NCBI GenBank assembly: GCA_964634945.1
Contig: CAZWMG010000004.1
Coordinates: forward strand, 52,528-116,527
From: an uncultured Planctomycetia bacterium
GTDB lineage: Bacteria; Omnitrophota; Gorgyraeia; JABMRG01
Length of the DNA stretch: 64,000 bases
Direction of reading: 5' to 3'
The translations under genes were made by a program, and so were the position numbers. This document shows, piece by piece, positions 3,671-64,000 of the stretch (position 1 is its first letter; each line of letters opens with the position of its first letter). The notes beneath the pieces are model-generated. The model worked only from the letters and a program-made list of their open reading frames with translations, did not search any database and had not been told where the DNA came from.

Positions 3671-3746
3671 TGGTGACCCCAGCGGGACTCGAACCCGCGT
3701 AAACGGCTCGAAAAGCCGTTGTCCTAGACCGCTAGACGATGGGGCC
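3671..3746 (-). tRNA. tRNA-Glu (anticodon TTC)
   Basis: The reverse complement folds as a cloverleaf. Acceptor GGCCCCA/TGGGGTC, D-arm GTCTAGCGGTCTAGGAC, anticodon stem CGGC/GCCG with loop TTTTCGA, T-arm GCGGGTTCGAGTCCCGC, and an encoded CCA. Confidence 0.8.
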
Positions 3747-6187: not shown

Positions 6188-6269
6188 ACTATTCCCTTTT
6201 TTAGTGTCTCGTTGTGCGTCGCGCGTATCGCGTATTGCGTAAAAACTGTAACGCGATACGCAATACGAA

Positions 6270-8870
<2,601 letters not shown>

Positions 8871-8882
8871 TTATGCTATTTG

Positions 8883-9191
8883 CTAGCATTCTCCTGCTCT
8901 GAATTTGATTTTTATCGGGTTTTTGTTTTTCAAGTATCTATTAAGCCTTTTTTCTATTTTACTTCTGTTTATGTTTAATTGGTAAATCCATGTTGGACTA
9001 TCTACGTCTATTATTAGCGTTGTTTTGGTTATTTTTTTTGGTTTTGTGTGCCTTGCCGCGTTTTGCCCGGCCGCGTCTACCCACGCGGACCAGACCTCCT
9101 CTTCGCTTAAGAGGCCCTTTTTTTGTTCTTCCGCTGTCTTTATCGCCGCCTTAAGTACCTCTTTTAATGGTGTTGGGCCTGTATGTTTCAT
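8883..9191 (-). CDS. dciA: DUF721 / DciA-like small protein (putative replicative helicase loader/operator)
   Basis: 102 aa, basic. It sits between dnaN and gyrB, the conserved DciA position. Assignment rests on size and context. Confidence 0.5.
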   Translation of the reverse strand: MKHTGPTPLKEVLKAAIKTAEEQKKGLLSEEEVWSAWVDAAGQNAARHTKPKKITKTTLIIDVDSPTWIYQLNINRSKIEKRLNRYLKNKNPIKIKFRAGEC

Positions 9192-9194
9192 TAT

Positions 9195-10286
9195 TTATAT
9201 TATTTGCATGGGCAGCACTATATATATGTATGTATCGTCTATACGTATAACGCCTGGTTTCTCCGGGCCTGTTAACTCTATCTCTACAATGTCTTGCTTT
9301 ATGCTTTTTAGCGCTTCTTGCAGGTATGTGGGATTAAACCCCACTAACAAGTCGTTGCCTGTATACTTAACCTCTATCTCTTCTTTTGTCTCTCCTATCT
9401 CTGGCGTTGCCTTCGAAACGACTAATTTGTTTTTTGTTAACTGTAGTTTTATCGCCTGTGATTCTGGTGTTGTAAGCAGGCTGGCCCTCTTTATAGCAGG
9501 TATAAGTTTATTGCGTTCTACTACAAGTTTTTTATCTGCCTCATTAGGTATCGCTTGCTTATAATCCGGGAATTCCCCCTCTACGAGCCTTGACACTATA
9601 TACAAGTTGTTTAAAGAAAATGTGACTTGGTTTTTTGAAAATTGTATTTTTATTTGTTCTGTATCATTTAAATTTTTTAAAAGTTCTTGTGTTGTTTTTG
9701 TGGGTATTATATATTTTTTTTCTTCTTGTGCGCTTGTCGCTTGTTTGTGTTTTACTATTGATAATCTTCTTCCGTCTGTTGCTATTAGTTTTATATTATT
9801 TTTTGATATAGCGCAGCAAATGCCGTTTAATACATATCTTGTTTCATCTCTGCTCATCGCGAACGTTGTTGCTAATAACATTTGTTTTAAGTCTGTTTGT
9901 TTTATTACAATTTCCTCTATTGTGGTTGGTGTTGGTAGTTGTGGGAATTCATCTTTTGGTGTAGTTAAGATTTTACATGTGGTTGTCTCTGTTTTTATAA
10001 TAATGGTGTTGTTTTTTTTAGCTGTTATCTCTATCTCTGTATTTGGTAGTTCTTTTATAATGTCTGCGAAGCGCTTTGCCGGTACGGTGACTGCTCCTTT
10101 TTCGTGAATCTTTGCCTCTGTTGTCGCTGTTATTCCTATATCTAGATCTGTTGCTGTGATTCTCACGTTGTTATTTACTTCTAGCAGTACGTTTAATAAT
10201 ATGGGTAATGTATTTTTTTGCGTTATCGCGCCAATAACAGCTTGTATTCCTAATAACAGATCATCTTTTTTTATACTTATCCTCAT
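9195..10286 (-). CDS. dnaN: DNA polymerase III beta sliding clamp
   Basis: 363 aa. Begins MRISIKKDDLL..; three-domain length; located next to dnaA. Confidence 0.9.
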   Translation of the reverse strand: MRISIKKDDLLLGIQAVIGAITQKNTLPILLNVLLEVNNNVRITATDLDIGITATTEAKIHEKGAVTVPAKRFADIIKELPNTEIEITAKKNNTIIIKTETTTCKILTTPKDEFPQLPTPTTIEEIVIKQTDLKQMLLATTFAMSRDETRYVLNGICCAISKNNIKLIATDGRRLSIVKHKQATSAQEEKKYIIPTKTTQELLKNLNDTEQIKIQFSKNQVTFSLNNLYIVSRLVEGEFPDYKQAIPNEADKKLVVERNKLIPAIKRASLLTTPESQAIKLQLTKNKLVVSKATPEIGETKEEIEVKYTGNDLLVGFNPTYLQEALKSIKQDIVEIELTGPEKPGVIRIDDTYIYIVLPMQII

Positions 10287-10367
10287 ATCAACAACCCTTA
10301 TTATTATAAATATATACTTTCTTAAAATAGTAATAGTAATTACTATTGTGTATAAGTCAATAACTCT

Positions 10368-11741
10368 TTAACTAACGTCACGTATTTTAGTTACGATATT
10401 CTCTACCACACTCTTAATATGTGGATTCTTTTTAATATCTTCTTCTATCTTATCACACGCATGGATTATAGTGGAATGATCCCTGCCGCCAAATAATCCG
10501 CCAATCTCAACAAGAGGAAGTTTTGTCATTTCCCTAGATAAAAACATTGCGACTTGCCTGGGGTATGCCACTTTCTTGGTCCGCTTTTTAATCCGCATGT
10601 CATTACTGCCAATACCAAAATATTCCGCGACAACAAATTGTATCCTCTCAACATTTATATTAACCTTGTTTTCAACAACAATTTCCTTTAATACGTCGCG
10701 AGCAACAGCGATATCTATCTTATGGCTGACAAGGGACGAATACGCAATTACCCTAATTAACGCCCCCTCTAATTCACGAATGTTGGCGGTAACATTATCC
10801 GCTATATAAGTAATTACATCCATAGGGACAACAACAGTCTCTTTTTCAAGTTTTTTCTTTAATATGGCGATGCGCGTTTCCATGTCAGGTGGCTGCATAT
10901 CCGTAACAAGGCCCCACTCAAAACGAGATACAAGCCTCTTCTCCATCGCCGGCATCTCTTTTGGGGATCTGTCACTAGAAAAAACAATCTGCTTATGCGC
11001 GTCATAAAGCGTGTTAAAGGTGTGAAAAAACTCTTCCTGAGTAGCCTCTTTACCGGATATAAAATGTATATCATCTATTAAAAGAACATCCTGGTGCCGG
11101 TATTTATCTTTAAATTTTTGCGCAGTCCGGTTCTGAATAGAGTTAATAAGTTGATTAGTAAATTTTTCACTCGATATATAAGTTACTTTCAAGCGGGGTT
11201 GTTTTGCAAGGAGATGTAGGCCAATGGCCTGCATTAAATGGGTCTTACCAAGCCCTACGCCGCCATAAATAAACAGAGGGTTGTACGCCTTGGCAGGGCT
11301 ATCAGCGACGGCAAGGGCAGCGGCATGCGAGAAGCGGTTGCACCCGCCTATTACAAAATTATCAAACGTGTAGCGCTGGTTAAGAGTGGTGTCTTGCCCC
11401 CGGGCAAGTCTATCAAAAGAACGAGAAAATAGTTTAAAGCCCCCCTTCTTGTCGTTTATTTGCTCCGCGTCTTGGCCCTCCTGCGGAGCGTGCGCGCACA
11501 CAACAAAATTAATTTTTATTCCTTCGCTGCCAATCTCCCGGACTGCAGCATTAACCTGATCCATATAATGGTCAAGGAGCCACTCCTTAAAAAAATTATT
11601 CGGCACCTCAACAATAATTGTATCGCCTTCTACCTTAGTTTGCTTAGTAGGCACAAACCACGTCTCATAGCTTTGCGGGCTGATCTGTTTATGTAAACAA
11701 GCTAGAATCGACGTCCAGGTGTTATCTGTTGCGTGTACCAT
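10368..11741 (-). CDS. dnaA: Chromosomal replication initiator DnaA. Start probably at the internal Met (MVHATDNTW); the track's longest frame runs to 11804.
   Basis: AAA+ Walker A GGVGLGKTHLMQAIG. Box VII. C-terminal HTH KVAYPRQVAMFLSREMT. Confidence 0.9.
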   Translation of the reverse strand: MVHATDNTWTSILACLHKQISPQSYETWFVPTKQTKVEGDTIIVEVPNNFFKEWLLDHYMDQVNAAVREIGSEGIKINFVVCAHAPQEGQDAEQINDKKGGFKLFSRSFDRLARGQDTTLNQRYTFDNFVIGGCNRFSHAAALAVADSPAKAYNPLFIYGGVGLGKTHLMQAIGLHLLAKQPRLKVTYISSEKFTNQLINSIQNRTAQKFKDKYRHQDVLLIDDIHFISGKEATQEEFFHTFNTLYDAHKQIVFSSDRSPKEMPAMEKRLVSRFEWGLVTDMQPPDMETRIAILKKKLEKETVVVPMDVITYIADNVTANIRELEGALIRVIAYSSLVSHKIDIAVARDVLKEIVVENKVNINVERIQFVVAEYFGIGSNDMRIKKRTKKVAYPRQVAMFLSREMTKLPLVEIGGLFGGRDHSTIIHACDKIEEDIKKNPHIKSVVENIVTKIRDVS

Positions 11742-12007
11742 ATAGAAAGACCTTGAAGTTTGCGTAAATTGTGTACAACTTGATATCATAATCAAGCGGC
11801 ACAAAAACGCACATATAATAAACAGCTACAATAAACATGTTGCCGCAGCCTTGCCGACGACAAAATAGTGAAAACAACAACACGGCTATTACTTTTTGCG
11901 TACAACACAGACAAGGTAGAACATAGCGCGCAAGACAACAGAACGCTTGCGCTAAACGAAATGATTATAACAGAAACAAGGGCATTTGCAAGAAAAAAGT
12001 TTTTAAC

Positions 12008-12035
12008 TTGACTTAGCGTGTGTTTATGATATACT
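12008..12035 (+). promoter_or_regulatory. Sigma70-like promoter for rpmH-rnpA-yidD-yidC (TTGACT, 16 nt, TGaTATACT extended -10)
   Basis: Read directly. The spacing and the extended -10 TG are good. Confidence 0.4.
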
Positions 12036-12043
12036 TTCTTACT

Positions 12044-12181
12044 ATGAAAAAACATATTAAACAGAAATCAAACTTGAAGCGAAAGCGCACGCACGGATTC
12101 AGGCAGCGCATGAGCACCACGGGTGGCCAGGCAGTGCTTAAGCGGCGAAGACAAAAAGGTCGGAAAGTTTTGTCTGCATGA
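12044..12181 (+). CDS. rpmH: 50S ribosomal protein L34
   Basis: 45 aa: [45 protein letters not shown]. Below the ORF-track size cutoff. Stop overlaps the rnpA start (ATGA). Confidence 0.85.
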
Positions 12182-12558
12182 TACTTACCCCGCCTGCCCC
12201 GCGGCAGGCACCACCGCACCAGAAATTCAAACGACTTATCCGCACCAGTGATTTTATGCGCGCATATCGTCAAGGGCGCCGCGTTAGGGGTCATGTTGCG
12301 CGAATATATTATTTACCGAACCAACGAGCCTTCAGTCGTTTAGGTGTAGTAGTGAGTAAGCGGGTCAGTAAAAAGGCAACAGATCGCAATTGGCACAAGC
12401 GCGTTATCCGAGAGTGGTTCATGCAACACGCTAATATTGCTACTGTAGGCCACCTCGACATTGTAATTATGGTCATTAAGGCAATGCCCACGACGCAACC
12501 TGGTTCTGCCGAGCTCAGGAGAGCGCTTGCACTACTTAGTCAACAAATATTAACATAA
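12178..12558 (+). CDS. rnpA: RNase P protein component
   Basis: Basic 126-aa protein directly after rpmH with an ATGA overlap. Confidence 0.8.
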
Positions 12559-12565
12559 ATCCACT

Positions 12566-12775
12566 ATGACATCTCTTATTAAACAGATAATACGCCTATA
12601 TCAGCACGCCTTTTTTTACAATAGACAATTCATGCAATGCAAATACCACCCAAGCTGTTCCGATTATATGATGCTTGCGCTAGACCGGTATGGTCTCTGG
12701 GGAGGCACTCTTAGGGGGCTTTGGCGCATTGTGCGCTGCAACCCTTTTGCAAAGGGCGGTATGGATATGCCGTAA
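12566..12775 (+). CDS. yidD: Membrane protein insertion efficiency factor YidD
   Basis: 69 aa. CKYHPSCSDY...RCNPF..GG.D motif. Confidence 0.85.
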   Translation: MTSLIKQIIRLYQHAFFYNRQFMQCKYHPSCSDYMMLALDRYGLWGGTLRGLWRIVRCNPFAKGGMDMP

Positions 12776-12878
12776 CGCATACTACAAGGCCAAGTGCACA
12801 AGGTTACGGCAATAGCAGTATAACCGTATCATCTTGAACCGTATCATCGCACAACACACTGAAAACAAAGGATTTATA

Positions 12879-14492
12879 ATGAATAACGAGAAAAGATTAT
12901 TTTTAGCTATCGGCCTATCAGTGCTTATAATAGTAAGTTATCAAGCATATATGAGAAAGTATGCTAAACCGTATCATCCGCAAAGCATGAGTGATACGGT
13001 TGTAGAAACCGAAAAAGCGGCGCCGGTAATTCGCAAAACAACAAAAGTGCAAGAGGATTCTGTTAGCGTGCGCGCTGTTCCGGATATTACAACAACCGTA
13101 AGCAACGATGTTTTTACAGCAATTTTTACAGATAATGGGGCAGCGATAAAAGAGCTATATCTAATGCAATATTTAAATAGCGCAGGCGAGCCCACATTAC
13201 TATGCAGGCCAATAGAGCAGACACCGTACTTATTAGCAACAACAGAGAAGGCAGAGGCTATGCGCAAATGGCGCGTGGTTAGCAATAATAGCAATCATAT
13301 TGTGTATAAAAGCACACTAGATGGAATAGAAATAATTAAAACATTTAATTTCTATAACACTAAGCATATTATAGGGTTAGAAGTCGCAATACGCAACACA
13401 ACGCAGACACATAAACAGGTAAATTACGCACTTGGTAGTGGAGCGGTTGAGGCAAGTAGTGGCTACCTAGACAGTAGGTATATTGGGGCTGATGTGGATA
13501 TAGCGGGTAAGGTTCTGAGAAAGCGGCCATCAGGAAAAACCATAACAGACGGCATTTACGTAACCGGTTCCCCCGCATGGGTTTCAGTGCACGATAGGTA
13601 TTTTTCATTAGTCTTAAAGCCAGAGCAGCAAGAAGAAGGGGCGATCATAAAAAGCAGTACAAAGAAGAATATATGGTCAAGCATAATATCAGGGCCAGTG
13701 GCTTTAGGCCCAAGCCAAGTTGTTACGAGAAGCTACGTTCAGTATGCAGGCCCAAGTGATATTGCATCGATCTCAGAGTTAGGCGCATCAGCAGGCAATG
13801 TAATAAGTTACGGGTTTTTCCATCCCGTAGCAAAGGTGCTTTTCAGGGCCCTGCGCATGTTTTATCGAATAACAGGTAATTACGGTTTATCCATTATTCT
13901 TTTATCGCTTACTATCAGCTTAATAATGATGCCGCTTACGAGAAAGAGCCTGCATTCCATGAAGGCTATGCAGGCGATTCAGCCGGAAACAGAACAAATA
14001 CGCAAGGCCTATAGCGACAATCCGCAAAAAATGAACAAAGAGATCATGGATCTCTATAAAAAGCATAAGATAAATCCTGTAGGAGGCTGTTTGCCAATGT
14101 TGTTGCAACTGCCGATTTTTATGTCTCTATATCAGGTCTTGTTGCGTAGCGTGGCATTGCGTGGGGCACATTTTTTATGGATTAAAGATCTCGCAGGGCC
14201 GGATGCGGCATTTACATTGCCGCAAAAATTCCCAATAATTGGCAACCATATTAATATATTACCAATTTTAATGGCTATTGCTATGTGGGGACAGCAAAAG
14301 ATGTCACAGGGTGGAGGTAAGGAGGTATCAGACCAGCAAAAGATGATGGCAACAATCATGCCTATAATGTTTGGCTTTATCTTTTATAACATGCCTTCCG
14401 GTCTTGTATTATATTGGTTCACAAACACACTGTTTATGCTGCTCATACAGGAAGTCGTCTTAAAGGTGCGCAAACCGGCGATCAGCCAGTAG
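12879..14492 (+). CDS. yidC: Membrane protein insertase YidC (start at MNNEKRLFLAIGL; the track ORF begins at 12834)
   Basis: Large periplasmic domain, then the conserved C-terminal 5-TM core (PMLLQLPIF..LYQ). Confidence 0.9.
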   Translation: MNNEKRLFLAIGLSVLIIVSYQAYMRKYAKPYHPQSMSDTVVETEKAAPVIRKTTKVQEDSVSVRAVPDITTTVSNDVFTAIFTDNGAAIKELYLMQYLNSAGEPTLLCRPIEQTPYLLATTEKAEAMRKWRVVSNNSNHIVYKSTLDGIEIIKTFNFYNTKHIIGLEVAIRNTTQTHKQVNYALGSGAVEASSGYLDSRYIGADVDIAGKVLRKRPSGKTITDGIYVTGSPAWVSVHDRYFSLVLKPEQQEEGAIIKSSTKKNIWSSIISGPVALGPSQVVTRSYVQYAGPSDIASISELGASAGNVISYGFFHPVAKVLFRALRMFYRITGNYGLSIILLSLTISLIMMPLTRKSLHSMKAMQAIQPETEQIRKAYSDNPQKMNKEIMDLYKKHKINPVGGCLPMLLQLPIFMSLYQVLLRSVALRGAHFLWIKDLAGPDAAFTLPQKFPIIGNHINILPILMAIAMWGQQKMSQGGGKEVSDQQKMMATIMPIMFGFIFYNMPSGLVLYWFTNTLFMLLIQEVVLKVRKPAISQ

Positions 14493-30390: not shown

Positions 30391-30727
30391 TATCTTGATT
30401 TCATACAAAAATATTGATATAGTAAAAGTGTCCCTGCTGTGTGCGTGGCGCTTTGATGCAACTTTGAGCCAACACCTTTATACCGGGAGCCCGACGTAAC
30501 AAGAGATAATGGCATGCTCTTGATAGCAAAGAGAAGCCTGAATGCTTGGACAGGGCACCCACCTAAATATAAGGGTTCAAAGTCCATCAGTTGCCCGGCA
30601 CGTGCGGGGATTGTTTTTCGTATTGCGTCGTGCGCCTGCCTGCCGGTAGGCAGGTATATCGTATCGCGTGACAATATTAACATAAAATATAAACGCAATA
30701 CGAGTCACTAGTAAACAAAATCATGCC

Positions 30728-32038
30728 ATGGATCTATTCCAACAACAAAAAAATTTCCTAAAAGATCTGCCACTTGCTGCACGCGTGCGCCCGCAGACAT
30801 TAGATACCTTTATGGGGCAGAGGCATATAATAGGCCCGGGAAAGCTTCTTAATCGTGCCATAGACGCGGATAAAGTGCACTCTCTTATTTTATACGGGCC
30901 AAGTGGGACAGGTAAAAATTGCCTTGCCTACATCATAAGCAACCTTACAAAGGCCCATTTTGACGAGATTAACGCCGTATCTTCCAATGTAGCCCAGATG
31001 CGTAAGCTGATAGAAGCGGCTAAAATAAGGCGCGCCGCAACCGGGCACAGGACGATACTCTTTATCGATGAGATCCACCGCTTTAATAAGGCGCAACAGG
31101 ACGTTCTTATGCCGTATGTGGAGAATGGAGACGTTACATTAATAGGAGCTACTACTCACAACCCTTTCTTTTTTATAGCACCGGCACTGATATCGCGTTC
31201 ACTTGTCTTTGAGTTGCAGCGATTAAGTGAGGACGAGCTAATAGATATATTGAAAAACGCCCTAGCAAATAAAGATAAGGGTTTTGGGCGCAATAAGATC
31301 AAGATAGATGATAAGGCATTAACGTTTCTCGCGAAAATATCAGATGGTGACGCGCGCCGCGCGCTAAACGCGTTAGAGATAGGCGTATTGACTACGCAGC
31401 CACAAAAAAATGGTTACATACATTACACATTAAAGGTGGCGCAGGAATCTATTCAGAAAAAAGCCGTAGTATATGACAAAGATGGAGATGGGCATTACGA
31501 TACTATATCAGCGTTTATAAAATCAATGCGCGGTTCAGACCCTAATGCGGCGCTATATTGGCTCGCTAAGATGCTCTATGCCGGAGAAGACCCGCGTTTT
31601 ATCGCTCGCCGTATTGTAATTTGCGCGGCAGAGGATGTAGGCAACGCTGATCCACAGGCGCTGGTATTAGCAAGCGCGGCATTAAATATCTCAGAATTTG
31701 TAGGAATGCCTGAGGCGCGCATACCACTTGCGCAGGCAGTAACATATATAGCTACAGCACCTAAATCTAACGCGGCGTATATGGGCATTGAAAAGGCCAT
31801 GGACGATGTAACCAATGGCAGGACCCTTGAGGTGCCGACACATCTTAAGGATGCAAGTTACAAGGGCGCTAAGCAATTAGGCCGTGGCAAGGACTACAAA
31901 TACGCCCATGCTTATAAAGGCCATTATGTAGAACAGGAATATATCCCCGCAAAGAAACAGTATTATGAGCCTACAGACATAGGTTATGAGCAAAATATCA
32001 GAGAATATCTTAGCAAGATAAAAAGAGACCTTAGTTAA
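30728..32038 (+). CDS. rarA: Replication-associated recombination protein A (MgsA/RarA AAA+ ATPase)
   Basis: Walker A GPSGTGKN, Walker B FIDEIHRF, sensor and C-terminal MgsA domains. Confidence 0.85.
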   Translation: MDLFQQQKNFLKDLPLAARVRPQTLDTFMGQRHIIGPGKLLNRAIDADKVHSLILYGPSGTGKNCLAYIISNLTKAHFDEINAVSSNVAQMRKLIEAAKIRRAATGHRTILFIDEIHRFNKAQQDVLMPYVENGDVTLIGATTHNPFFFIAPALISRSLVFELQRLSEDELIDILKNALANKDKGFGRNKIKIDDKALTFLAKISDGDARRALNALEIGVLTTQPQKNGYIHYTLKVAQESIQKKAVVYDKDGDGHYDTISAFIKSMRGSDPNAALYWLAKMLYAGEDPRFIARRIVICAAEDVGNADPQALVLASAALNISEFVGMPEARIPLAQAVTYIATAPKSNAAYMGIEKAMDDVTNGRTLEVPTHLKDASYKGAKQLGRGKDYKYAHAYKGHYVEQEYIPAKKQYYEPTDIGYEQNIREYLSKIKRDLS

Positions 32039-32098
32039 TATAAAAACTATATAGCTGTAAGTTGTAAGTTTTAAGTCGTAAGTCCTAAGCATTAACTT

Positions 32099-32146
32099 CA
32101 AGACCGGTTCTCAAGCACAGGTGGTTGTGCTTGAGAACCGGTCTTG
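32099..32146. repeat. 48-nt perfect palindrome (REP-like): CAAGACCGGTTCTCAAGCACA-ggtggt-TGTGCTTGAGAACCGGTCTTG
   Basis: 20-21 bp stem. A near-identical copy (46/48) in inverted orientation lies at 61691..61738. Confidence 0.9.
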
Positions 32147-32186
32147 TCAAGTAGTTAATAATTTTATATGTTTTAATCTGTTTTTC

Positions 32187-32215
32187 TTGACTTAACCCCA
32201 TATATAGTGTATATA
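32187..32215 (+). promoter_or_regulatory. Promoter (TTGACT, 17 nt, TATATA) for the giant ORF
   Basis: Read directly. Confidence 0.4.
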
Positions 32216-32287: not shown

Positions 32288-35200
32288 ATGACAAAAAAAA
32301 CTATAACACTTATACTTATAATAAGTTATATCATAACATCTAGCGGTCCTTGCTACGGTTTCGGCGCTAAGACGCTATTCACGCGCAAATCTCATGCACA
32401 AAGGCATGTAAATGCTTCTGCCAAGGCTGCGGAGAAGGATATTCTGGAGGCTTCTTCATCTCTTAGTATACCAAAAAGCCTCGGCCGCGTAGTTGAATCC
32501 TATAAAGGCAAAAATAAGAAGTTAATAATCCATATTCAGGACCGCCACGTAGACCCGGTTACGCAGAACAATATCGCGTCAATAATAGAGGCCTTGAATC
32601 TGCAGCACAATATTTATCTTATGTGCCTTGAAGGCGCTTTTAATGAACTTGATACATCGTTTTACAATAGTTTTGAGGATGCAGTGCTAAAAAAGAAGGT
32701 TGCGGAGGTTTTTGTGCAACAAGGCCTTTTTACAGGCCCGGAATTCTACAAGATAACCAATGCGGAAAATTACATAAGGGCCGTTGGCGCGGAGGATCGT
32801 GCGTTATATTTAAAACATCTTGCCAATTATAAGGAGAACCAGATCAATAAAGATGAAATTACAAGGCTCCTCAGGCATATGGGCAAAGCTACAGACGCGC
32901 TTAAGAAGCATGTTTTCTCTAAGGAGTTGATAGCATTAGACAAGGTTTCTCGCGATTACGTTAACAAGCAGATCGACCTGCCTGAATATCTTCTCCAGCT
33001 GAACGCGTATGCAGCCAAGTCCGACATATTGCCAGAGGAGTATTCTAATCTAAACAAATTTATCCATCTTACGGAAAGAGAACGCAGCATAGATTTTAAA
33101 GCAGCGGAGCAAGAGAGAGAATCGCTGATAAGATATTTTTCAGAGCGCCTGCCAAAAGAAGGCGTCCAGGCGCTCGTCCAATTAAGCCTTGATTTCCGTT
33201 CAAACAAGGTCTCAGATATTGTTTTTCACGACTACCTTGAGAGCTTAGCAGTTGAGCATGGGTTAAATAGCGCTATTTATAAAAACCTTGTTGCGTATAC
33301 AGAATATTTGAGGCTTTCTAGGGAGATAAACCATCTAAAGGTCTTTGATGAAGCACAAGATCTAGAGGAAAGAACGCAGATAGCGCTTTGCAATAACCAA
33401 GACCAGCAGAGCCTTGTTCAATATTCAAAATCAGTGAGCATGTTAAAAGATCTATATGCACTCAAGCTTACGCATCGTCATCTAGATTATATGGACGAGC
33501 ACCCGGGCTCGTTTGATATAGCAAACATACAAAAGTTTTTAAACAAAACATCTGCCAAATACGGCTTAGATACATTGTTAACCGATAGCTTAATAAGCCC
33601 GGATAGGCAGGCGCTTAATAATTCAAAAGAATTTTACCGCCTCGCGCTAATGCGTGACATTGCCCTTACAGACAACACATTAAAGCGCATGAAGCAGTAT
33701 CGTAAGGACAAGGCGATTCTTGTTACAGGAGGCTTTCATACTCAGGGCATAACAAATATTTTAAGGAAAAAAGACATATCATATGTTGTCATATGTCCTA
33801 CCATAGGCCTTAATGATTGCGATAAGATCTACGAAAAGCGGATAAATGGCACTCTTCCTAGTATGTATGCGTTGCAAACAGCATTGGCTAATATGTTATC
33901 TGTGCAGCTTAAGTCTGGCGAGGCTGATGTGCAGGAGCTCTTTTCTAAGGCCTACCAGAGCGTTTCTCAGCCTGCTGTAGAAGCCCAGGATATATTGATA
34001 GCCAAAGCCTCGTCATCAGGATTAGGTGGTTATGTAGTCAAAAACTTAATAGTTGCTGCAACAGTAGCGCTATTGGGAACAGGGATTTATATCCAGCAGT
34101 CTTCAGTAAGTTCTCAGAAAGACGCAATGGATACATTTGTGATAGCAAAGGCATTGCCATCGGATCAGTGGCAGATTATTTTAGATACATTAAGAGAGAT
34201 TTACGCCCTTATAAAAGACATAGAAGCGCCGAAGCCGCGCCAGATGGAGATGAAATTCAAGGTTGGCAAGGCGGCACGCATTTTACGTGATTACATAACG
34301 AATAATTTAGATAGTATACATAAGTATGCTAAGGAGGAGGGGATAGAACCGAATTATCTTGCGGCAATAATCATAGCAGAGCAGATGGATATAGACGAAT
34401 TTAGTTTAAAAGGTGAGGGCACAGATAAGATTCTGCCGCGTCTTCATATACGTGATACATCGCGGGGCCCGGGGCAGATAACAGAGCGGGCGCTTAAAAA
34501 GCATTGTAAAGAGACGCGGTGGCCCGCGTATGATAATCGATCTACGGAAGAGCTCTCCGATTCCGAGATAAATGCTATCCTAATGGGTGAAGGGGGCAAC
34601 CTGACAGACCACATAAGGGCGATAGCGATAATCTTAAGGGGAAAACGTGATTCTATTAAAGATTCTGCCGCGCTCTCTCTTGTTCAAGGCAAGCTGCAGT
34701 TAGGCGCGCTTTATACATCAACATACAGGGGCCTCGTAAAGGAGGATAAGGAGGATTTCTGTACATTCAGACAACTAAGAGAGAGCGAAAAAATACGGAC
34801 ACAGGTTTATGCGCATGCTGTAATTATCTATGAAGACTTTGTAAGCAAATGGCTGCGCTACCATAAATATGCATATGTGCCAGATGACATGTTATCTATG
34901 ACACTGCCTACCGATAACGCGGTTGATAGCGGCGCTGACGGCATTCAAGATATACAGGCAAAGGCCTCATCATCAGGCAGGAAGATAATGCATGTATGGG
35001 AGAATGGACACCCTGTCCTACCAGGGGGTTCACAAGCTACGCTTATGGCAGGATTAGGCGTATGTTTTGCAGTAGCTGCTAAACATACAAAAACAGAAGA
35101 AAGGTATATGGCGCACCTGTATCCGCTTCGACAAACAGGGGGCGCAGCAGGGAACTGGAAAGACGCGTATATCAATACGATGCTTAGCCGGCTCGATAGT

Positions 35201-38200
35201 TTCAATGTTCAACCACCAGGCCACAGGATAGATAAAGCCCGTAAGGGGAATGGATGGAATGCCGTTGTTATCCCGTCAGGTAAAGAGCTTGACGGTTATC
35301 CAAAAGAGGATAGAATCACGTTAGAGGACATAACAGAGAGGCTGGAGGCGGCTGGTGTAGATTTTATCGCAGACATTAACAGGGCCCACAAGTTAGTTAG
35401 ATTCCAAAAAGACGGCTCCATAAATATTATTCTGCCGGAAACGCCGGAAGCCTCTTATGACATTACTGCGCTGACGAAGGCTTCATCATCAGGCCGCGAT
35501 ATAGACAGAGGCTCTTTTTATAATCTTATACCTTCTGAAACCAGGCCAAGCGCAAAGATATATGATTACACCGATACAGAGGACAGGTATGAGATAATAG
35601 AATCGCTTAAGAGCAGTAATTGGTATTACCAGGCAGACGGTGATGGCCAGAAAGCCGCGATAATCAACAGGGCCTTTAACACGCTATCCGACTCTGCTAT
35701 TAACCAGCTAAAGAGTATTATAACAGAGCGCATGCAGGAAAACGGCAATGCTATAACAGAAGACACTATAGAGAGTATTATGGTATATGGAAGTTGGATA
35801 TATAATTTCGATGACAAGAAGATTTCTAATGATATCGATTTCGCGGTTATAGCAAAAGGAGATATACCCGTTCAGTCTATAAGAGGCGTAAGGATTCCGA
35901 AAACACTTTTTAAGGACACAGCCGATATAATACCGGTAGAACAAGCCGACATAAGGATTATAGGCACAGAACAACTCTTGTTAGCACCCGATGAAAAGGA
36001 GTACGAGACTACCCACTTTGAGGTATCTATGCAGGGCCACGGCATATTGCTCTGGGGCAGGAACTTCTTTCAGAGGCAGCCTATGGCGCACAATCTTATG
36101 GTGATGGCCAGAACGTTTTTATCTATTATGGAATTTTATCTGGATGTAAAATTACACAGCACGCATTATCCAGAAGAGTATTTAGATACTCTGAATAAAA
36201 GGCTGGATGAGGTGTATAATATTTTTAAGGTGCTGTTTAAAAATCTTGACCAGCCGGAACAGCCTTTAGCTGTAGGTATTATTCCCGTAGATAAGGCAGT
36301 AAAAGATATGAAGGCAGTAATGCGTAATGTAAGAAAATACTTAGACGGCTATTCTTATGAAGCGTTCCAGGATATCCTTAATACCGGTGTAGCGTCTGGA
36401 TTGAATGCACTTTATGTCCAGACCGAGACCAAGTTCATGAAAGAGTCGTTAGAAGCTCTTGGAAAAAAGACACAGGCCAGGACTTCATCATCAGGGGCAA
36501 TAATTACGCGCCCATTAGATAAGATACCGCCGGAAGAGATAAAGAATATTCTTGTTGTAGGTGATTACAAAAAGATAATACCAATGCCTAAATTAGGCGA
36601 GACAATAATAGATTTATGGCCGCTTGTTACTTCTCTTTGTAAGAAATACCCGGAATCAAAGATATTCGTATCAGCCCCTTATACGGAATTTTATTTAGCA
36701 GGCGACTTTAAGGGGCAGGTGGTCCCCATACCAAGCACAATAAAAGATATCCGTGACTGGGGCTACGCTAAATCAACATGGATTACAGATGATATTAACG
36801 GAGAGAAGGTATTGCGGTATAATGCGAAAGATATGTGCGCGTTAACACAGGCCGGCTATAAGGCGCGAAAGGAATTTATTCAGGACGAGATAATATTTGA
36901 GAGAAAACAGGAAGACCGGACAGGCGGTGAGGCGGGAACGGGAATCGATATGGTTTTTGATGTATCTGTGGCGCAGGGCCTGCGCAATGAGTTTTTAGGT
37001 AAGCAGCGCGGCAGACAGCCGTATTATTTTTCCATAGCCTCTTTTCTTAAGTATGCAAGCGCAACGAACGTATCCGTCGGACGCTATGATCAGGAATGTC
37101 CTGCGCAATACCGTGACAAGAAGGGTGATATTCACGACGTAAATTATGGTAATACGCTGGATGGCTTTCTTAACGTTCCTATGCTTAAACAGGCAGATAT
37201 ATGGAAGGCATCAATCGCTATTACCGCCGGCCTGGGCCTTGATGTAACGCAAGATAGTCTCAGATATATAACTTTAACCGAAAGTGAACGCCAAAACGCG
37301 ATAAGTTTTTTATCAGAAGTAAGCGGTATTTTTGATGGAAAGAACGAGACTGCTATTTTTGATACGACGAAGAAGATTATTCTTGTTAATGTATACGCAC
37401 AGACACAAAGTGTTTTAATGGGTTATACAATCGACCAGCAGATAGACACTTGGGTAGATTGCATAAGCACAACTCTCAAATCAATGAGAAACACCTATAT
37501 TGTTTTTACGAGAGGCGGGGAGATGGATGATAACTATACGTTTGTTGACCAGGTTGCAAGGGAGCTGATAAAAAGAAGCAAGGGCTCTGTCGCTCCACAT
37601 CAGAACGCTGTAATCCTGCCAAAAGAATCATTATATTCAAGGATTAACGAGGTTGTTGGCTTATCAGATGCGGTAATAACCCTGGATACGGGTATGAGCC
37701 ATTATGCTAACGGGGTATTTAATAAGCCTACACTCCTTATTACATCATCCAATATTCTGCACTGGGCTGCACCAAGAGAGAATGTATACCCGATAATACG
37801 CACCACGATACCGCAAAAAAATACTCACTATACAGAATTAGACAGTATTAAGCACGCAACCATGCTTTTGAACGCATTGTTAGGTGTAAAATCAGTCCGT
37901 GAAATACTTAAAAGCAGAAAACAGGCCAAGGCATTATCGTGGCTCGATTCCAATGATAGAATGCAGCAGCTCAGGACGCTTATGCAGCGCAAGTACGACC
38001 CTGCCGCAGAGATAGTTATGGATGATGTTGTGGATCAAATATTTCCAAAAGTTGTAGCGGATTTTATCGAGAAGAAAGCCGGGCGAAACGCAGAATATCT
38101 TTGGCCGCTTAGTGTTTCACCTAAAGCCTCTTCCGCTGGTACGAAGATATTGGATGAGGAATTATATTATGACGTAAGCGAGGCTATAGAGAAGAGCATA

Positions 38201-38890
38201 GAGCCTCTTTATGAGAAGGCCAGCAGTCTTGGGCTTGGGCGGCTGACATTTATTACAACGGTGCGCGAACTTACAGAGATAGATAAGAAACATTTAAGAA
38301 ACCTCGCCAGGCAAAATTCAGGGCTGCCGGATGATGCCCCGAAAAAGATAACCATAATAGCCTTGCACGATCAGCTGATAGGCGCGCTGAAAGGGTGCGG
38401 TTTTACTGATACAGGCGCCAGGCCTTCTGTGTTAGGTGTTAATTCCTTCAGTTTCTTGCCGGACTTTTTGGGCAGGGGCTGGGATAACATAGATGACGAT
38501 GAAAAGATGGCTATGGTAGCTGCGCATGCACGCACTCAGAATAAGGCCGTCATAACGATAACGGATGATATAGCTGCACAGGGTATCGCCTCTGTGATAC
38601 CCGCATACCTAAACGACAGGATGAAAGGAAGAGTCGTTATAGCGTCTATGAAAGGGGCAGAGCAAAAGACGCGGATCGGATACGATACAATAGAAGAAAA
38701 CGGCATACTCTTTAGTGCGATACTCGCCAATGCCGTTAAGGAGATAGGCACACAACTTATAGGGAGCAAGGATCAGGAATTATTTATACTGAATATATTG
38801 CCGCCTATTAATAGCAAGGCATTCGAAGAATTTATTCATAGCCTCATGGATATCAAAACCGCGGTTGAAGCAACTGCTTCAGCAGCCTAA
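32288..38890 (+). CDS. Giant 2200-aa mosaic protein. Signal peptide, then an N-terminal IHIQDRH/GGFHTQG domain (TraB/TIKI-like?), then a TM helix near residue 585. A minimal nucleotidyltransferase domain (GSx12DIDF) follows, then a GT9 heptosyltransferase-like domain. Six K/T-A-S-S-S/A/L-G linker motifs separate the domains.
   Basis: Single uninterrupted frame. Motifs read from the translation: VYGSWIYNFDDKKISNDIDFAVI; ILVVGDYKKIIP..LITLDTGMSHYANGV; KASSSG at about residues 570, 890, 1060, 1400 (TSSSG), 1960 (KASSAG) and 1990 (KASSLG). Confidence 0.85.
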   Translation: MTKKTITLILIISYIITSSGPCYGFGAKTLFTRKSHAQRHVNASAKAAEKDILEASSSLSIPKSLGRVVESYKGKNKKLIIHIQDRHVDPVTQNNIASIIEALNLQHNIYLMCLEGAFNELDTSFYNSFEDAVLKKKVAEVFVQQGLFTGPEFYKITNAENYIRAVGAEDRALYLKHLANYKENQINKDEITRLLRHMGKATDALKKHVFSKELIALDKVSRDYVNKQIDLPEYLLQLNAYAAKSDILPEEYSNLNKFIHLTERERSIDFKAAEQERESLIRYFSERLPKEGVQALVQLSLDFRSNKVSDIVFHDYLESLAVEHGLNSAIYKNLVAYTEYLRLSREINHLKVFDEAQDLEERTQIALCNNQDQQSLVQYSKSVSMLKDLYALKLTHRHLDYMDEHPGSFDIANIQKFLNKTSAKYGLDTLLTDSLISPDRQALNNSKEFYRLALMRDIALTDNTLKRMKQYRKDKAILVTGGFHTQGITNILRKKDISYVVICPTIGLNDCDKIYEKRINGTLPSMYALQTALANMLSVQLKSGEADVQELFSKAYQSVSQPAVEAQDILIAKASSSGLGGYVVKNLIVAATVALLGTGIYIQQSSVSSQKDAMDTFVIAKALPSDQWQIILDTLREIYALIKDIEAPKPRQMEMKFKVGKAARILRDYITNNLDSIHKYAKEEGIEPNYLAAIIIAEQMDIDEFSLKGEGTDKILPRLHIRDTSRGPGQITERALKKHCKETRWPAYDNRSTEELSDSEINAILMGEGGNLTDHIRAIAIILRGKRDSIKDSAALSLVQGKLQLGALYTSTYRGLVKEDKEDFCTFRQLRESEKIRTQVYAHAVIIYEDFVSKWLRYHKYAYVPDDMLSMTLPTDNAVDSGADGIQDIQAKASSSGRKIMHVWENGHPVLPGGSQATLMAGLGVCFAVAAKHTKTEERYMAHLYPLRQTGGAAGNWKDAYINTMLSRLDSFNVQPPGHRIDKARKGNGWNAVVIPSGKELDGYPKEDRITLEDITERLEAAGVDFIADINRAHKLVRFQKDGSINIILPETPEASYDITALTKASSSGRDIDRGSFYNLIPSETRPSAKIYDYTDTEDRYEIIESLKSSNWYYQADGDGQKAAIINRAFNTLSDSAINQLKSIITERMQENGNAITEDTIESIMVYGSWIYNFDDKKISNDIDFAVIAKGDIPVQSIRGVRIPKTLFKDTADIIPVEQADIRIIGTEQLLLAPDEKEYETTHFEVSMQGHGILLWGRNFFQRQPMAHNLMVMARTFLSIMEFYLDVKLHSTHYPEEYLDTLNKRLDEVYNIFKVLFKNLDQPEQPLAVGIIPVDKAVKDMKAVMRNVRKYLDGYSYEAFQDILNTGVASGLNALYVQTETKFMKESLEALGKKTQARTSSSGAIITRPLDKIPPEEIKNILVVGDYKKIIPMPKLGETIIDLWPLVTSLCKKYPESKIFVSAPYTEFYLAGDFKGQVVPIPSTIKDIRDWGYAKSTWITDDINGEKVLRYNAKDMCALTQAGYKARKEFIQDEIIFERKQEDRTGGEAGTGIDMVFDVSVAQGLRNEFLGKQRGRQPYYFSIASFLKYASATNVSVGRYDQECPAQYRDKKGDIHDVNYGNTLDGFLNVPMLKQADIWKASIAITAGLGLDVTQDSLRYITLTESERQNAISFLSEVSGIFDGKNETAIFDTTKKIILVNVYAQTQSVLMGYTIDQQIDTWVDCISTTLKSMRNTYIVFTRGGEMDDNYTFVDQVARELIKRSKGSVAPHQNAVILPKESLYSRINEVVGLSDAVITLDTGMSHYANGVFNKPTLLITSSNILHWAAPRENVYPIIRTTIPQKNTHYTELDSIKHATMLLNALLGVKSVREILKSRKQAKALSWLDSNDRMQQLRTLMQRKYDPAAEIVMDDVVDQIFPKVVADFIEKKAGRNAEYLWPLSVSPKASSAGTKILDEELYYDVSEAIEKSIEPLYEKASSLGLGRLTFITTVRELTEIDKKHLRNLARQNSGLPDDAPKKITIIALHDQLIGALKGCGFTDTGARPSVLGVNSFSFLPDFLGRGWDNIDDDEKMAMVAAHARTQNKAVITITDDIAAQGIASVIPAYLNDRMKGRVVIASMKGAEQKTRIGYDTIEENGILFSAILANAVKEIGTQLIGSKDQELFILNILPPINSKAFEEFIHSLMDIKTAVEATASAA

Positions 38891-57199: not shown

Positions 57200-57254
57200 T
57201 AAGCAAGATAGTCCTTATGTGCCACAACCGTTATTCCATATCAAAAAATACATT

Positions 57255-58001
57255 AAATAGGGACAGCGCCCATTTAAATTTTTTCTTGCTTATGGGCGAT
57301 TCCTGTAATATTATATATTCATGCCAAGAACCGCAAGAATAGTTTTCGAAGAATATCCGCACCATATCACTCAAAAAGGAAATTACGGGCAGAAGGTATT
57401 TACTAAAAATTCCGAATACAGTATTTACCTCGAATGGCTAAATGAATATGCTATCAAGTATAAATTAAGCATACTTGCATATTGCCTTATGCCCAACCAT
57501 GTTCATTTTGCTGCTATTCCAAATAAGTCCGATTCTCTATCCAAGACTTTTAATACATGTCATATGCGTTATGCGCAGTATTTTAACAAACGCAATAGAA
57601 TTTCAGGCCACTTGTGGAAAGGCAGATTTTATTCCGCTGTTTTAGATGATAATCATTTATATTACGTTGTAAGATACATAGAAAATAACCCGGTGCGAGC
57701 CAAGCTTGTAAAAAGAGCGGGGGATTGGAAGTGGTCGAGTGCGAATACCCATTTAAATGGCGCAAAAAGTATTTTGCATCTGGGCAACATAAGGAAATAT
57801 ATTGATAATATAGACTGGGCAGACTATCTGCAAAAAAGAGAAGATGACGCAATTGTCAAAACCATAAGAGATACGACACTGAGCGGGAAGCCCATGGGAA
57901 GTGATTCGTTTATAGAAAAGCTAGAAAAACTATCAGGAAAAAGTTTAAGGACATTACCGCGCGGCAGGCCTCGGCAAAAATAAATGGGCGCTGTCCCTAT
58001 T
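57255..58001 (+). mobile_element. IS200/IS605-type Y1 (REP-associated tyrosine transposase-like) unit. 21-nt imperfect-palindromic ends in inverted orientation (57255..57275 and 57981..58001) flank the transposase gene.
   Basis: AAATAGGGACAGCGCCCATTT on the left is the exact reverse complement of AAATGGGCGCTGTCCCTATTT on the right. Confidence 0.7.
57321..57983 (+). CDS. Y1 HUH transposase (IS200-like / RAYT family)
   Basis: HUH motif MPNHVHF. Catalytic Tyr region YIENNPVRAKLV. 220 aa. No tnpB partner. Confidence 0.8.
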   Translation: MPRTARIVFEEYPHHITQKGNYGQKVFTKNSEYSIYLEWLNEYAIKYKLSILAYCLMPNHVHFAAIPNKSDSLSKTFNTCHMRYAQYFNKRNRISGHLWKGRFYSAVLDDNHLYYVVRYIENNPVRAKLVKRAGDWKWSSANTHLNGAKSILHLGNIRKYIDNIDWADYLQKREDDAIVKTIRDTTLSGKPMGSDSFIEKLEKLSGKSLRTLPRGRPRQK

Positions 58002-58202
58002 TAACGGCTTTTTTGACTATAGCGGGAATCCCTCTAACATGTTCGATATCAAATGGGCTCGCCTTCGGGTTTACAGCGTATCCTATGTGCAAGATATTTT
58101 CCAGATATAAAAACAGCATTAATTTGGATTATTATTGAAATGTATTGTTTAAGCAGATAGAATATTAGATAGTATAAGTATATTCCCAAAAAAGGAGGAC
58201 GT

Positions 58203-61628: not shown

Positions 61629-61690
61629 CCCCCCCCTAGCGATACCCCTATGGCACTTACCAATTTTTCCCAGGAACAGTTCTTTTTAGC

Positions 61691-61738
61691 CAAGACCGGT
61701 TCTCAAGCACAACCACCTGTGCTCAAGAACCGGTCTTG
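61691..61738. repeat. Second copy of the 48-nt REP-like palindrome, inverted relative to 32099..32146, with 2 substitutions
   Basis: CAAGACCGGTTCTCAAGCACAACCACCTGTGCTCAAGAACCGGTCTTG. Confidence 0.9.
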
Positions 61739-61781
61739 AGCCATAATCAGCTAATAATGTTTAATTTTCCTGGGTTTTTTC

Positions 61782-61896: not shown

Positions 61897-64000
61897 GGGG
61901 CAGATCATGGGAATACGGGTCAATAAACTTATATCAATCTTAATTGTACTGGCTTTTATATCTACCAGTACCAACCTAAACTATATATCTTCTTATATAA
62001 GCAACGATAAAGACGCTCTTAGGAGCATGTCCGCAAATAAGGCCGTGGCAGGCGATTTAAAGCAGGCGCTTATAGCGGCACCTGCATTGCAAGCGCTTTT
62101 AGGCGTACCTTCTACTAAAACATCCTCTGCAGGAGATCTGACAGATGTAACAGCCAAGCTAAAGCAGATACTCAAAAATCCTGATTTAAAACCGCCTGTT
62201 AGGATGCTTATAGATTCTTTAAGCGTATGGATTCAAGAGAATTCCGGACAGAAAAACAAAAACCATATATTGCAAAGGGCCGAACTTGACAAAAGGATAG
62301 ATGAGATAGAGGGCTTACTTGAGGAGATCGAGCTGGATATTCAGACTCCGGGAACAGGACATCTTCCTGAACTGGCAATTATATCTGATTATCATGGTGA
62401 GATTAACCTATTTCTTAAGTATGTTGCTGATATAATATCCCAAAAAATAGGCAAAAAGATAGAGCTAGACCATAAGATATTTCCACAGCAGTCGCTTAAA
62501 GAGCAGCTTGCTGCTCAAGGCGTTGATATCGCGCAGATAGATATAACCTTTTTTCTGTTGGGAGATTTTTTAGACAGGGGCGCTTATGGCGTCAAATGTT
62601 TCAGGCTTGCGGAAGAGATGATTAACCTTGGAATAGCAAAATATGTTACCGGTAATCATGATTTATGGGCATTCTTAAATGTTATGGGGTTTCATCTACC
62701 CGCTTATAAGGGGTATAATTTTTATGGGCAGGCAAAATCTGAGCAACTGGTTACTGACCATTGGAGCGATTCAGAGATAGCAGATAACAGGATTGCCTGG
62801 TGGACAGATAATCTTGCCGAGTATAATGCCTCGCAGCAGGAGCTCCAGAAAGACCTATTGCTTACTTATCGCGGCAAAAAGAAAACAGCTAATGTTATAA
62901 GAGAAGACCTTAAGGCAGTGTATTTGACAATTGAGCACATGCTTACAGAGCAGGAAAAGAAATTATGGCAGGATCTTGTAGGCTATTATTTCGGAACCAC
63001 AGATGTGTATACGGGTTTTCGCGCGGTAGGCATGATGTCAGCGCAGTGGTGGAAAAACAAGGTACAGGCCCTAGATAGAATCATTGAGACAAGCTTGGAG
63101 TATCAATCTCCGGAATCAGTTGCAACAGAGATATGGTATCAGGTAAAGGAATATACGGATCAGGCTGCTCTTGTTGTACAGACACGGTTGGACGACGCTA
63201 TTGCGCAAGGAGAGTGGTGGTATCAGGTATTTAATGATATCAATCATCAGAATTATGTATCTGTTGAATGGTGGGGCAAGGATTGGTCATCACATAAAGG
63301 ATGGGGTACAAGTGTTATAGATGAGTTAAACCTTTTAGAAAATAACGGAGTTTGGAACCAGGCAAACTACGTTGAGAATCAGCACCTTAAAGACCTGGCA
63401 ATGTTTTACAGAAAGAATTTTACGCTATATCAGAAAGACTCTTACGGTAACGTATACACACATGGCTGGCTGCCTATTAATATGGAGACAGGACGCATAT
63501 CTTTTCAATACAAAGGTGTTACATATGAAGATAGAGATGTATGGAACGGCCTGGAAGCCATACAGAACGATGTACGGGATTTGAGCAAGCCTCTTTCAGA
63601 GCTCCACGAAGCGCTTAGCCTGGTCAACTCCTGGTATGCGGATAAGACTACAAAGATAAAACCGGATCATATTAAGGCTTATCTCCAAGAGGTAGGACTA
63701 GAAAAAATATATAGTAAGCTTGGCATCAGATGTTGGTTTACGTGCCATAATCCGCTTAATAAGCTAGCTTCTAAAGGCATAAGTTTTAAGACCCAACAGG
63801 ATTTGTTGCTGCATTTTTCAGTTGATAAAGGTATGAGCTATAAAAAATTCAAAGACTTAGGAGCATATACAAGAGTAAGCTCAGAAGGCATTTTCCTAAG
63901 AGGATTTGCAAGTTCGAGTTTTCAGAGGATAATCGATAGCCCGCCTACTGTGACATTGCAGAAGGATGAAGAGTTTGGTTATGTTGCAAGAAAGAGATTT
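61897..64000 (+). CDS. 3'-partial calcineurin-like metallophosphoesterase with an N-terminal signal/TM. Possibly class III fructose-1,6-bisphosphatase-like. It runs off the window end.
   Basis: Open frame to position 64000. Motifs IISDYHGE, LLGDFLDRG, VTGNHDLW. Confidence 0.55.

Follow-up and report, generated by a model that had tools for sequence, protein, structure and literature searches.

Repetitive extragenic palindromes (REPs) are short repeats, often with a mismatch or bulge in the stem, whose hairpins form in single-stranded DNA. They characteristically reach tens to hundreds of copies in one genome and carry a conserved tetranucleotide, GT[AG]G (or CGTC), at the hairpin foot. Most work on REP/RAYT systems, in which REPs are paired with a REP-associated tyrosine transposase (RAYT), concerns Proteobacteria and Cyanobacteria. 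RAYT genes occur in single copy, are inherited vertically, and are flanked by their REPs, with which they coevolve (PMC2817692, PMC5581495). Classical RAYT genes carry inverted flanking REPs, and an NP(L/V)(R/K)xG motif beside the catalytic tyrosine is specific to RAYTs (Nunvar 2010, PMC2817692). The structure 4ER8 is that of Escherichia coli TnpA_REP bound to a REP hairpin (PMC3333891, PMC3479197), and this enzyme requires a two-base stem mismatch for binding and cleavage (PMC3333891). In this study, we analyzed a 48-nt palindrome at positions 32099-32146 of a 64,000-nt stretch of DNA (contig CAZWMG010000004.1, positions 52,528 to 116,527; hereafter the window) from an uncultured bacterium of the GTDB lineage Omnitrophota. 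With a probability of roughly 0.8, we regard it as a copy of a nonautonomous REP-type element that belongs to a REP/RAYT system of Omnitrophota. Its membership in a family, the link of that family to a RAYT gene, covariation of the stem, and presence or absence at orthologous sites were all established directly. This is a familiar kind of bacterial repeat in a little-studied phylum; in a full-text literature search, papers on RAYTs or repetitive extragenic palindromic sequences never also mentioned Omnitrophica.

The palindrome pair and its dispersed relatives

32099..32146, strand unassigned: REP-type hairpin copy 1, CAAGACCGGTTCTCAAGCACA-GGTGGT-TGTGCTTGAGAACCGGTCTTG, CA/TG form
61691..61738, strand unassigned: REP-type hairpin copy 2, CAAGACCGGTTCTCAAGCACA-ACCACC-TGTGCTCAAGAACCGGTCTTG, CA/CA form

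Copy 1 is the perfect palindrome that an earlier, sequence-only reading of this DNA had picked out. Its two arms of 21 nt are 100% complementary and form a 21-bp stem around a 6-nt loop, with a covariance-model score of 69.3 bits (E = 3e-17). The second copy proposed in the same reading was also confirmed, matching the reverse complement of copy 1 at 46/48 positions with the loop inverted. Copy 2 has the same 5' arm as copy 1, and its 3' arm carries CA in place of TG, which creates a 2x2 C.A/A.C mismatch. In this form of the stem, the mismatch parts a 14-bp basal stem from an upper stem of 5-6 bp. When the 21-mer arm was searched with up to 3 mismatches, only the four known arms were matched in the window, and none of 100 shuffled sequences contained any match. 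The covariance model, run with filters off over the 64-kb window, detected no further copies, either intact or degenerate. As single-stranded DNA, copies 1 and 2 were predicted to fold at -27.4 and -21.1 kcal/mol, respectively, with z-scores from -9 to -12, and as RNA at -42.1 and -35.3 kcal/mol. Neither hairpin matched a family in Rfam.

Outside the window, a genome scan that covered one genome per species yielded true hairpins only in the metagenome-assembled genome (MAG) CAZDLP01, which holds at least 4 copies; the hairpins lay on three contigs (L001, L002, and L006). The matches on L003-L005 were rejected as single-arm chance matches. A strict two-arm pattern retrieved 30 loci from metagenome contigs, which together with the 3 MAG loci represent 18 distinct flank contexts. 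The hairpin was the sole nucleotide similarity that BLASTN detected between these loci and the window, and viral contigs gave no hairpin match. By crude calling of open reading frames (ORFs), all 20 distinct sites, window included, were intergenic, the only coding overlap being with the 3' end of the RAYT ORF described below. Every site with two called neighbors lay between co-directional genes (16/16), and 14 of the 18 outside sites were located 2-81 nt past the upstream stop codon.

Most dispersed copies are perfect palindromes, either CA/TG or TG/CA. The notion that these two stem types represent opposite orientations was rejected, and a tally of orientation against gene direction was dropped: because the arms of a perfect palindrome are unchanged by reverse complementation, TG/CA and CA/TG are true compensatory variants. 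Across the flanks of 19 sites, only T(-1) and A(+1) were enriched, lengthening the stem to approximately 50 nt.

A RAYT-like gene between cinA and recA

In L006, and also in L022 and L059, two identical hairpin copies bracket an ORF of 193 aa. The L006 product matched Pfam Y1_Tnp (E = 3e-14), and its best NCBIfam match was REP_Tyr_transpos, at 72 bits against a cutoff of 80; the NCBIfam model for IS200 gave no match to it. A sequence search of the PDB with this ORF returned 4ER8, TnpA_REP, as the sole match (E = 4e-5). The AlphaFold model of a homologue, P0125 (pLDDT 92), also had 4ER8 as its best match (TM 0.69/0.76, E = 6e-8). Compared by Foldseek with TnpA of IS608, ISDra2, and IS200, the same model gave TM values of 0.45-0.50 (query-normalized) and 0.57-0.69 (target-normalized), with E values of about 1e-4.

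The enzyme family is marked by the motifs NHxH (invariant), GHxWQ, and YIEMNPVRAGL, and the L006 enzyme reads NQVRAG where the family has NPVRAG. The N-terminal threonine called invariant in RAYTs by Nunvar 2010 (PMC2817692) is absent from the alignment, which reads YHV(Y/M/I/T)(C/S/A)RGNN. Homologues are 52-92% identical, and several derive from MAGs named Omnitrophica. The gene order was the same at every fetched locus (L044-L054, L059 included): cinA on the opposite strand, then RAYT, then recA. Genes of this type (about 180 aa, HUH/Y1), flanked by hairpins on both sides, were found in the CAZDLP01 MAG and in at least 5 other Omnitrophota lineages, and the downstream hairpin overlaps the last RAYT codons. 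The hairpins beside the RAYT gene carry the CA/CA mismatch in L006, L044, and L046, other mismatches in L045, and perfect stems in L052 and L054. The CAZDLP01 MAG is itself labeled "uncultured Planctomycetia"; it shares its cinA-RAYT-recA-htrA-recX synteny and its RAYT family with Omnitrophica-labeled MAGs, and the label is probably imprecise.

The core of the hairpin, CTCAAGCAC-N8-GTGCTCAAG, is conserved across lineages. The outer 10-11 bp are wholly different between lineages with their complementarity kept, the lineage-specific outer stems being AAGACCGGTT/AACCGGTCTT, GGGACGGTAC/GTACCGTCCC, GAAACGCTCC/GAAGCGTTTC, GGGGTCAGGCC/GGCCTGACCCC, and one that begins with GAACGG. Both window copies have exactly the outer stem of the L006 type. 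In an alignment of 27 hairpins, 93.5% of cells were paired and compensatory changes were seen in 13 of the 21 pairs, compared to 22-40% paired cells in controls in which the pairing was slid by 1-3 columns. Loci with a common outer stem encode RAYTs that are at least 88% identical, and those with different outer stems encode RAYTs that are at most 67% identical. Between L045 and L046, RecA is 96%, CinA 84%, and RAYT 62% identical, and the outer stems differ throughout, which suggests replacement or very fast evolution of the RAYT-plus-hairpin module at a fixed locus. The coupling of stem and enzyme is enzyme-repeat coevolution as described for RAYTs (PMC2817692, PMC5581495). REPIN-style REPs nested within the arms were considered and rejected, since other lineages do not conserve the internal palindrome CAAGA-CCGG-T-TCTTG in their arms.

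Mobilization by the RAYT, the strand and the recognition details, and effects at the RNA level are what we infer from these observations. By analogy to E. coli TnpA_REP and IS200/IS605, the enzyme would bind the hairpin in single-stranded DNA, for instance in the lagging-strand template at the replication fork, and would probably read the 2-nt mismatch of the stem together with its conserved upper part. By cutting and rejoining nearby DNA, it would seed copies into intergenic DNA. Such copies would build up just past stop codons between co-directional genes, where they are tolerated, and would be gained or lost over short evolutionary distances, with the cinA-recA-linked RAYT maintaining the family as a whole. 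Copy 2 keeps the "master" CA/CA form, and copy 1 became a perfect palindrome. Perfect copies may arise when one arm templates the correction of the other. Since loss of the mismatch abolishes binding by the E. coli enzyme (PMC3333891), copy 1 may be an inactive relic. Through transcription of the two copies, the upstream mRNAs would carry very stable RNA hairpins at their 3' ends, and any effect as a barrier, on read-through, or as a 3'-end stabilizer would be a by-product.

Turnover at the two sites and competing explanations

30728..32038, + strand: rarA/mgsA, upstream of copy 1 (Pfam MgsA_C, E = 6e-71)
32035..32186, + strand: intergenic block of 152 nt with heptamer array, copy 1, and AT-rich stretch, replaced in L043
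32056..32090, + strand: heptamer array, TGTAAGT TGTAAGT TTTAAGT CGTAAGT CCTAAGC
32187..32215, + strand: promoter-like TTGACT-17-TATATA of the 2200-aa ORF, conserved base for base in the hairpin-less L043
59673..61628, + strand: gene for a Cache-HAMP-SpoIIE (RsbU-like) phosphatase, upstream of copy 2
61644..61753, + strand: block of 110 nt with copy 2, absent from the orthologous L055-L057
57321-57983: the window's own Y1/RAYT-like gene, 220 aa (Pfam Y1_Tnp; NCBIfam REP_Tyr_transpos, 73 bits)

The surroundings of copy 1 agree with what had been described for them from the sequence alone. The gene upstream is rarA, as its MgsA_C domain confirms, and its stop codon lies 60 nt ahead of the hairpin. 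The heptamer array ends 8 nt before the hairpin, and the -35 element of the giant-ORF promoter (TTGACT, 32187-32192) follows 40 nt after it. The rarA transcript would run into copy 1. The closest named relatives of the window RarA are all Candidatus Omnitrophota/Omnitrophica MAGs. Copy 2 is located 62 nt past the stop codon of the phosphatase gene and 43 nt ahead of a TTGACA-17-TAAAAT promoter.

At site 1, the closest relative, L043 (RarA 93% identical), has 12 unrelated nt instead of the 152-nt block, and rarA abuts the conserved promoter TTGACTTAACCCCATATATAGTGTATATA directly. At site 2, the 110-nt block is missing from L055-L057 (flanking protein 85% identical), where the promoter is kept. 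The hairpin model found no copy in the empty orthologous loci. In L058 (90% identical), the hairpin is present at site 2, with a decayed 3' arm and a flipped loop. Comparison of L058:6205-6254 with window positions 61690-61739 showed that the CA/CA asymmetry is kept and the loops are inverted (AAGTGGTC versus AACCACCT). The loop has thus flipped in place with no transposition, presumably by exchange between the arms. The inverted loop of copy 2 had originally been taken as a mark of mobility. Because the loop flips in place at the site shared by L058 and copy 2, with the stem asymmetry kept, its inversion says little in favor of transposition in the opposite orientation. Logan unitigs encoding a RarA protein identical to that of the window break off within the hairpin, as they would where a repeat or inverted repeat makes the assembly graph branch.

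It should be noted that several observations weigh against a REP/RAYT origin of the palindrome. The differences between filled and empty sites are blocks of 110-152 nt and not clean insertions of 48-50 nt. Target-site duplications seen by eye around the inserted blocks were rejected, as local alignment of the left and right flanks was at chance (p = 0.38 and 0.47). The more distant L041 keeps part of the heptamer sequence at site 1, so the "empty" state of L043 may be a deletion. At both sites our claim is turnover and not insertion, gain and loss being indistinguishable. The source genome contributes just two copies in 64 kb, and the window contains no cognate cinA-RAYT-recA locus within these 64 kb. 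Its own Y1 gene (57321-57983), whose product is 32% identical to the L006 RAYT, was considered as a partner of the 48-mer and rejected, since its boundaries are formed by another repeat. This is a perfect 24-nt inverted repeat, TTAAATAGGGACAGCGCCCATTTA (57253-57276 and 57981-58004), which occurs once in the window and has no sequence relationship to the 48-mer. Neither GT[AG]G nor another guide tetranucleotide was found in the flanks of the 19 sites, and the RAYT-flanking copies from six lineages share no common tetranucleotide; a GTAG 2-4 nt 3' of two copies is probably a coincidence. Judged by loop and mismatch asymmetry, the hairpins that flank the RAYT gene are direct in 5/6 lineages (L006, L044, L045, L046, and L054) and inverted only in L052. 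Finally, most dispersed copies are perfect, a form that is not bound in the E. coli system, and they may be inert.

These points can be combined with the synteny into a more elaborate picture, which we offer tentatively and consider unlikely as a whole. A phylum-wide Omnitrophota RAYT would be locked beside recA in the order cinA-RAYT-recA, and its IS200/IS605-like hairpins (same strand, direct, no GTAG guide) would place it, in evolutionary terms, midway from an insertion sequence to a domesticated REP system. It might function in connection with RecA and the processing of single-stranded DNA. Copies would be progressively "perfected" by correction within the hairpin (CA/CA to CA/TG or TG/CA) and would give rise to short tandem duplications at its foot, the heptamer array beside copy 1 being an example.

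Improbable, in our assessment, is that the palindrome is primarily a transcription-unit boundary element, that is, a noncanonical terminator or a stabilizer of RNA 3' ends that is repeated since many genes need one. Its position fits such a role, as both window copies and 14/18 of the others lie 2-81 nt past a stop codon and ahead of the next promoter, and so does the stability of the RNA hairpins (-42 and -35 kcal/mol). Canonical terminators with a stem and a T-tract are barely over chance in the window (24 versus 18 ± 4 expected), so the source genome may rely on other termination signals; E. coli REPs are reported to stabilize mRNA and to cause termination (work cited in PMC6006769). However, neither copy is followed by a T-tract. 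A terminator scan was empty at both, and the sequences 3' of the stems, TCAAGTAGTT and AGCCATAATC, do not provide the T/U tract that directly follows the GC-rich stem-loop of an intrinsic terminator, in line with the initial view that copy 1 is not a classical one. Close relatives keep the same gene pairs and the downstream promoter without the hairpin. Near-identical 48-mers stand at unrelated genes, and in genomes that have no other DNA in common, which argues for copying and not for convergent selection. Moreover, a terminator role alone leaves the RAYT link and the lineage-specific covariation unexplained. The preference for a mobile palindromic repeat over a gene-specific terminator, voiced from the sequence alone, is thus upheld by the 18 further sites, the RAYT link, the empty orthologous sites, and the missing T-tract. 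A boundary role is compatible with the REP/RAYT interpretation as a secondary, co-opted effect.

Still less probable is that the hairpins derive from an ordinary element of the IS200/IS605 type, as its solo ends or as miniature versions of it. The gene-flanking hairpins lie on the same strand and are direct in 5/6 lineages, as are the left and right ends of IS608 (PMC3333891), and a GTAG head is lacking. Yet a single conserved chromosomal slot, between cinA and recA, houses the gene in all lineages examined (protein identity, 52-92%), as would be expected of a vertically inherited single-copy RAYT and not of a jumping insertion sequence (PMC5581495). The gene product is nearer in sequence and fold to TnpA_REP than to TnpA of IS200, IS608, or ISDra2, both flanking hairpins correspond almost exactly to the complete dispersed unit, and no tnpB gene is present.

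An operator or upstream activating site for a dimeric regulator, acting at promoters of large secreted proteins, is the least credible of these explanations. It draws on the placement of both copies 40-43 nt upstream of a -35 element, ahead of signal-peptide proteins with (K/R)(A/T)SS(S/A/L)G motifs, on site 16 (L028) upstream of a homologue of the giant-ORF N-terminal region, on sites 11 and 15, which precede TTTTTTCTTGAC and a large ORF by about 30 nt, and on the right flanks of the window copies, which score 43 against 22.6 ± 4.1 for shuffled sequence. That flank score could also point to a larger repeat unit of hairpin, right flank, and promoter, but TTTTTCTTGAC, which gives half of it, is a promoter motif that recurs at other window promoters and is native to the empty site 2. 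The operator is further contradicted by the unrelated genes, tRNA genes, or RAYT gene that follow most sites, by orthologous promoters conserved without the palindrome, and by covariation between lineages in the outer half of the 21-bp stem, which argues for selection on pairing and not on a fixed protein-contact sequence.

Further features of the window and of the dispersed sites were recorded. The heptamer array (period 7, 4-4.7 copies, right edge 32089/90) is in 7-nt phase with the hairpin 5' end TCAAGAC and may, somewhat speculatively, be a slippage product at the hairpin foot. Short tandem duplications that abut or include hairpin terminal bases also occur in L015:1355-1375 (TAAAATCAAG x2), in L006:4556-4580 (TTGAGGAAGAAA / TTGAGAAAGAAA), and in L049:4094-4115 (TTGAAGAAG x2, with a single unit in L006); the window array (32056-32104 region) was counted among them. 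TRF arrays lay within 10 nt of a hairpin end in 3/8 cases against about 1 expected, which is weak evidence, and slippage at the hairpin foot is a possible cause.

The 2200-aa ORF following copy 1 (32288-38890) has no Pfam match and contains six (K/R)(A/T)SS(S/A/L)G motifs (residues 573, 892, 1064, 1398, 1946, and 1977) that resemble module boundaries or processing sites. The ORF following copy 2 (61907-64000) has a single motif of this kind (TKTSSAG, residue 71) and matches a metallophosphatase weakly, and both ORFs have signal-peptide-like N termini. A 6S RNA gene (Rfam RF00013, 87.6 bits) lies directly 5' of rarA at 30428-30614. The chromosomal origin region spans window positions 3758-14492, with gyrA, gyrB, dnaN, and dnaA on the minus strand and rnpA and yidC on the plus strand; the GC skew reverses near 11.8-12.2 kb, as does gene orientation, and both hairpins are on the right replichore.

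Among the dispersed sites, REP copies adjoin tRNA genes in L008:6624-6720 and L010:6177-6254, and the L010 tRNA is the sole similarity to the window other than the hairpin (window tRNA, 3674-3746). A second, unrelated palindromic family (..GGAACGTAAAATTTTC-loop-GAAAATTTTACTC..GCTCGCTCTC) is present at L041:11331-11411 and L058:6290-6349. It shares the intergenic slots, lying 3' of rarA in L041 and just past the REP in L058, and both contigs end soon after it. L028:5989-6114 and L033:7800-7878 share a sequence, GTAATCCCAATATGATAATGTCACATTATACC..., right before the TGAC of a promoter-like motif TTTTT(G/C)T|TGAC. This sequence begins 20-31 nt from two different REP copies, both contigs end inside it, and it is absent at the corresponding L009 and L024 sites. 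It probably represents one end of an insertion sequence whose target is the TTTTT(G/C)T|TGAC motif.

Comparison with known systems

For annotation, the palindrome should be labeled as a repeat element and not as a rarA terminator or a regulator of the giant ORF. The syntenic RAYT beside recA provides a natural series of covarying enzyme-hairpin pairs for the study of substrate recognition by Y1 enzymes, and the family allows a test of whether the stem-mismatch requirement of the E. coli enzyme is general. Strain-level variation and assembly breaks in Omnitrophota MAGs can also be traced with the hairpins as markers.

The window's own Y1 gene falls nearer to other known elements. Its long terminal inverted repeats are like those of TIRYT or TnpA_Y1 subclass 2.1 (Di Nocera 2013, PMC3733652; Quentin 2018, PMC6006769), and GGGACAG within them resembles GGGG[AT][CG]A[CG] of that group. 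Its slot is occupied by a xanthine permease gene in the syntenic L055 and L058, and so the Y1 gene is variable; in L055, a DUF553 gene is present as well.

The 48-mer family shares with E. coli REP/BIME (PMC3333891, PMC3479197, PMC2817692) an intergenic, bulged "long hairpin" composed of basal stem, 2-nt mismatch, upper stem, and loop. As there, copies are dispersed, and the same hairpin flanks an HUH/Y1 gene, here in relatives of the source genome. The Omnitrophota enzyme has its best sequence and fold match in TnpA_REP (YafM), the E. coli RAYT, and hairpin and enzyme coevolve in both systems. Unlike E. coli REPs, the Omnitrophota hairpin has no GT[AG]G head, its stem is 21 bp compared to roughly 10-15 bp, and its copies are single units and not BIME pairs. 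The gene-flanking hairpins are mostly direct, whereas they are inverted in E. coli, and the host belongs to Omnitrophota and not to Proteobacteria. The Omnitrophota RAYTs score 72-73 bits with NCBIfam, just under the 80-bit equivalog cutoff, and lack the N-terminal threonine reported as invariant.

Similarly to Pseudomonas REPIN-RAYT systems (PMC3116915, PMC5581495), the RAYT stands at a fixed locus, its flanking repeat is the dispersed repeat, and presence or absence shifts over short evolutionary distances. A REPIN, however, is a doublet of two short REPs and a spacer, whereas one long hairpin is found here, and its arms are not consistently palindromic themselves. The IS200/IS605 elements IS608 and ISDra2 likewise pair a Y1 HUH enzyme with direct, same-strand hairpins at both gene ends, and single-stranded DNA is the expected substrate in either case. 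In contrast to these elements, the Omnitrophota gene is syntenic and apparently immobile, without tnpB, and its two flanking hairpins do not differ from one another or from the dispersed copies; the fold match to IS200/IS605 enzymes is also weaker (query-normalized TM 0.45-0.50, compared to 0.69 for TnpA_REP). Taken together, this is a REP/RAYT-like system with three departures from the canon, namely, the absence of a GT[AG]G head, mostly direct flanking hairpins, and a very long stem. Such departures have precedent, since Y1 subclasses with atypical flanking structures have been described (Quentin et al. 2018, PMC6006769).

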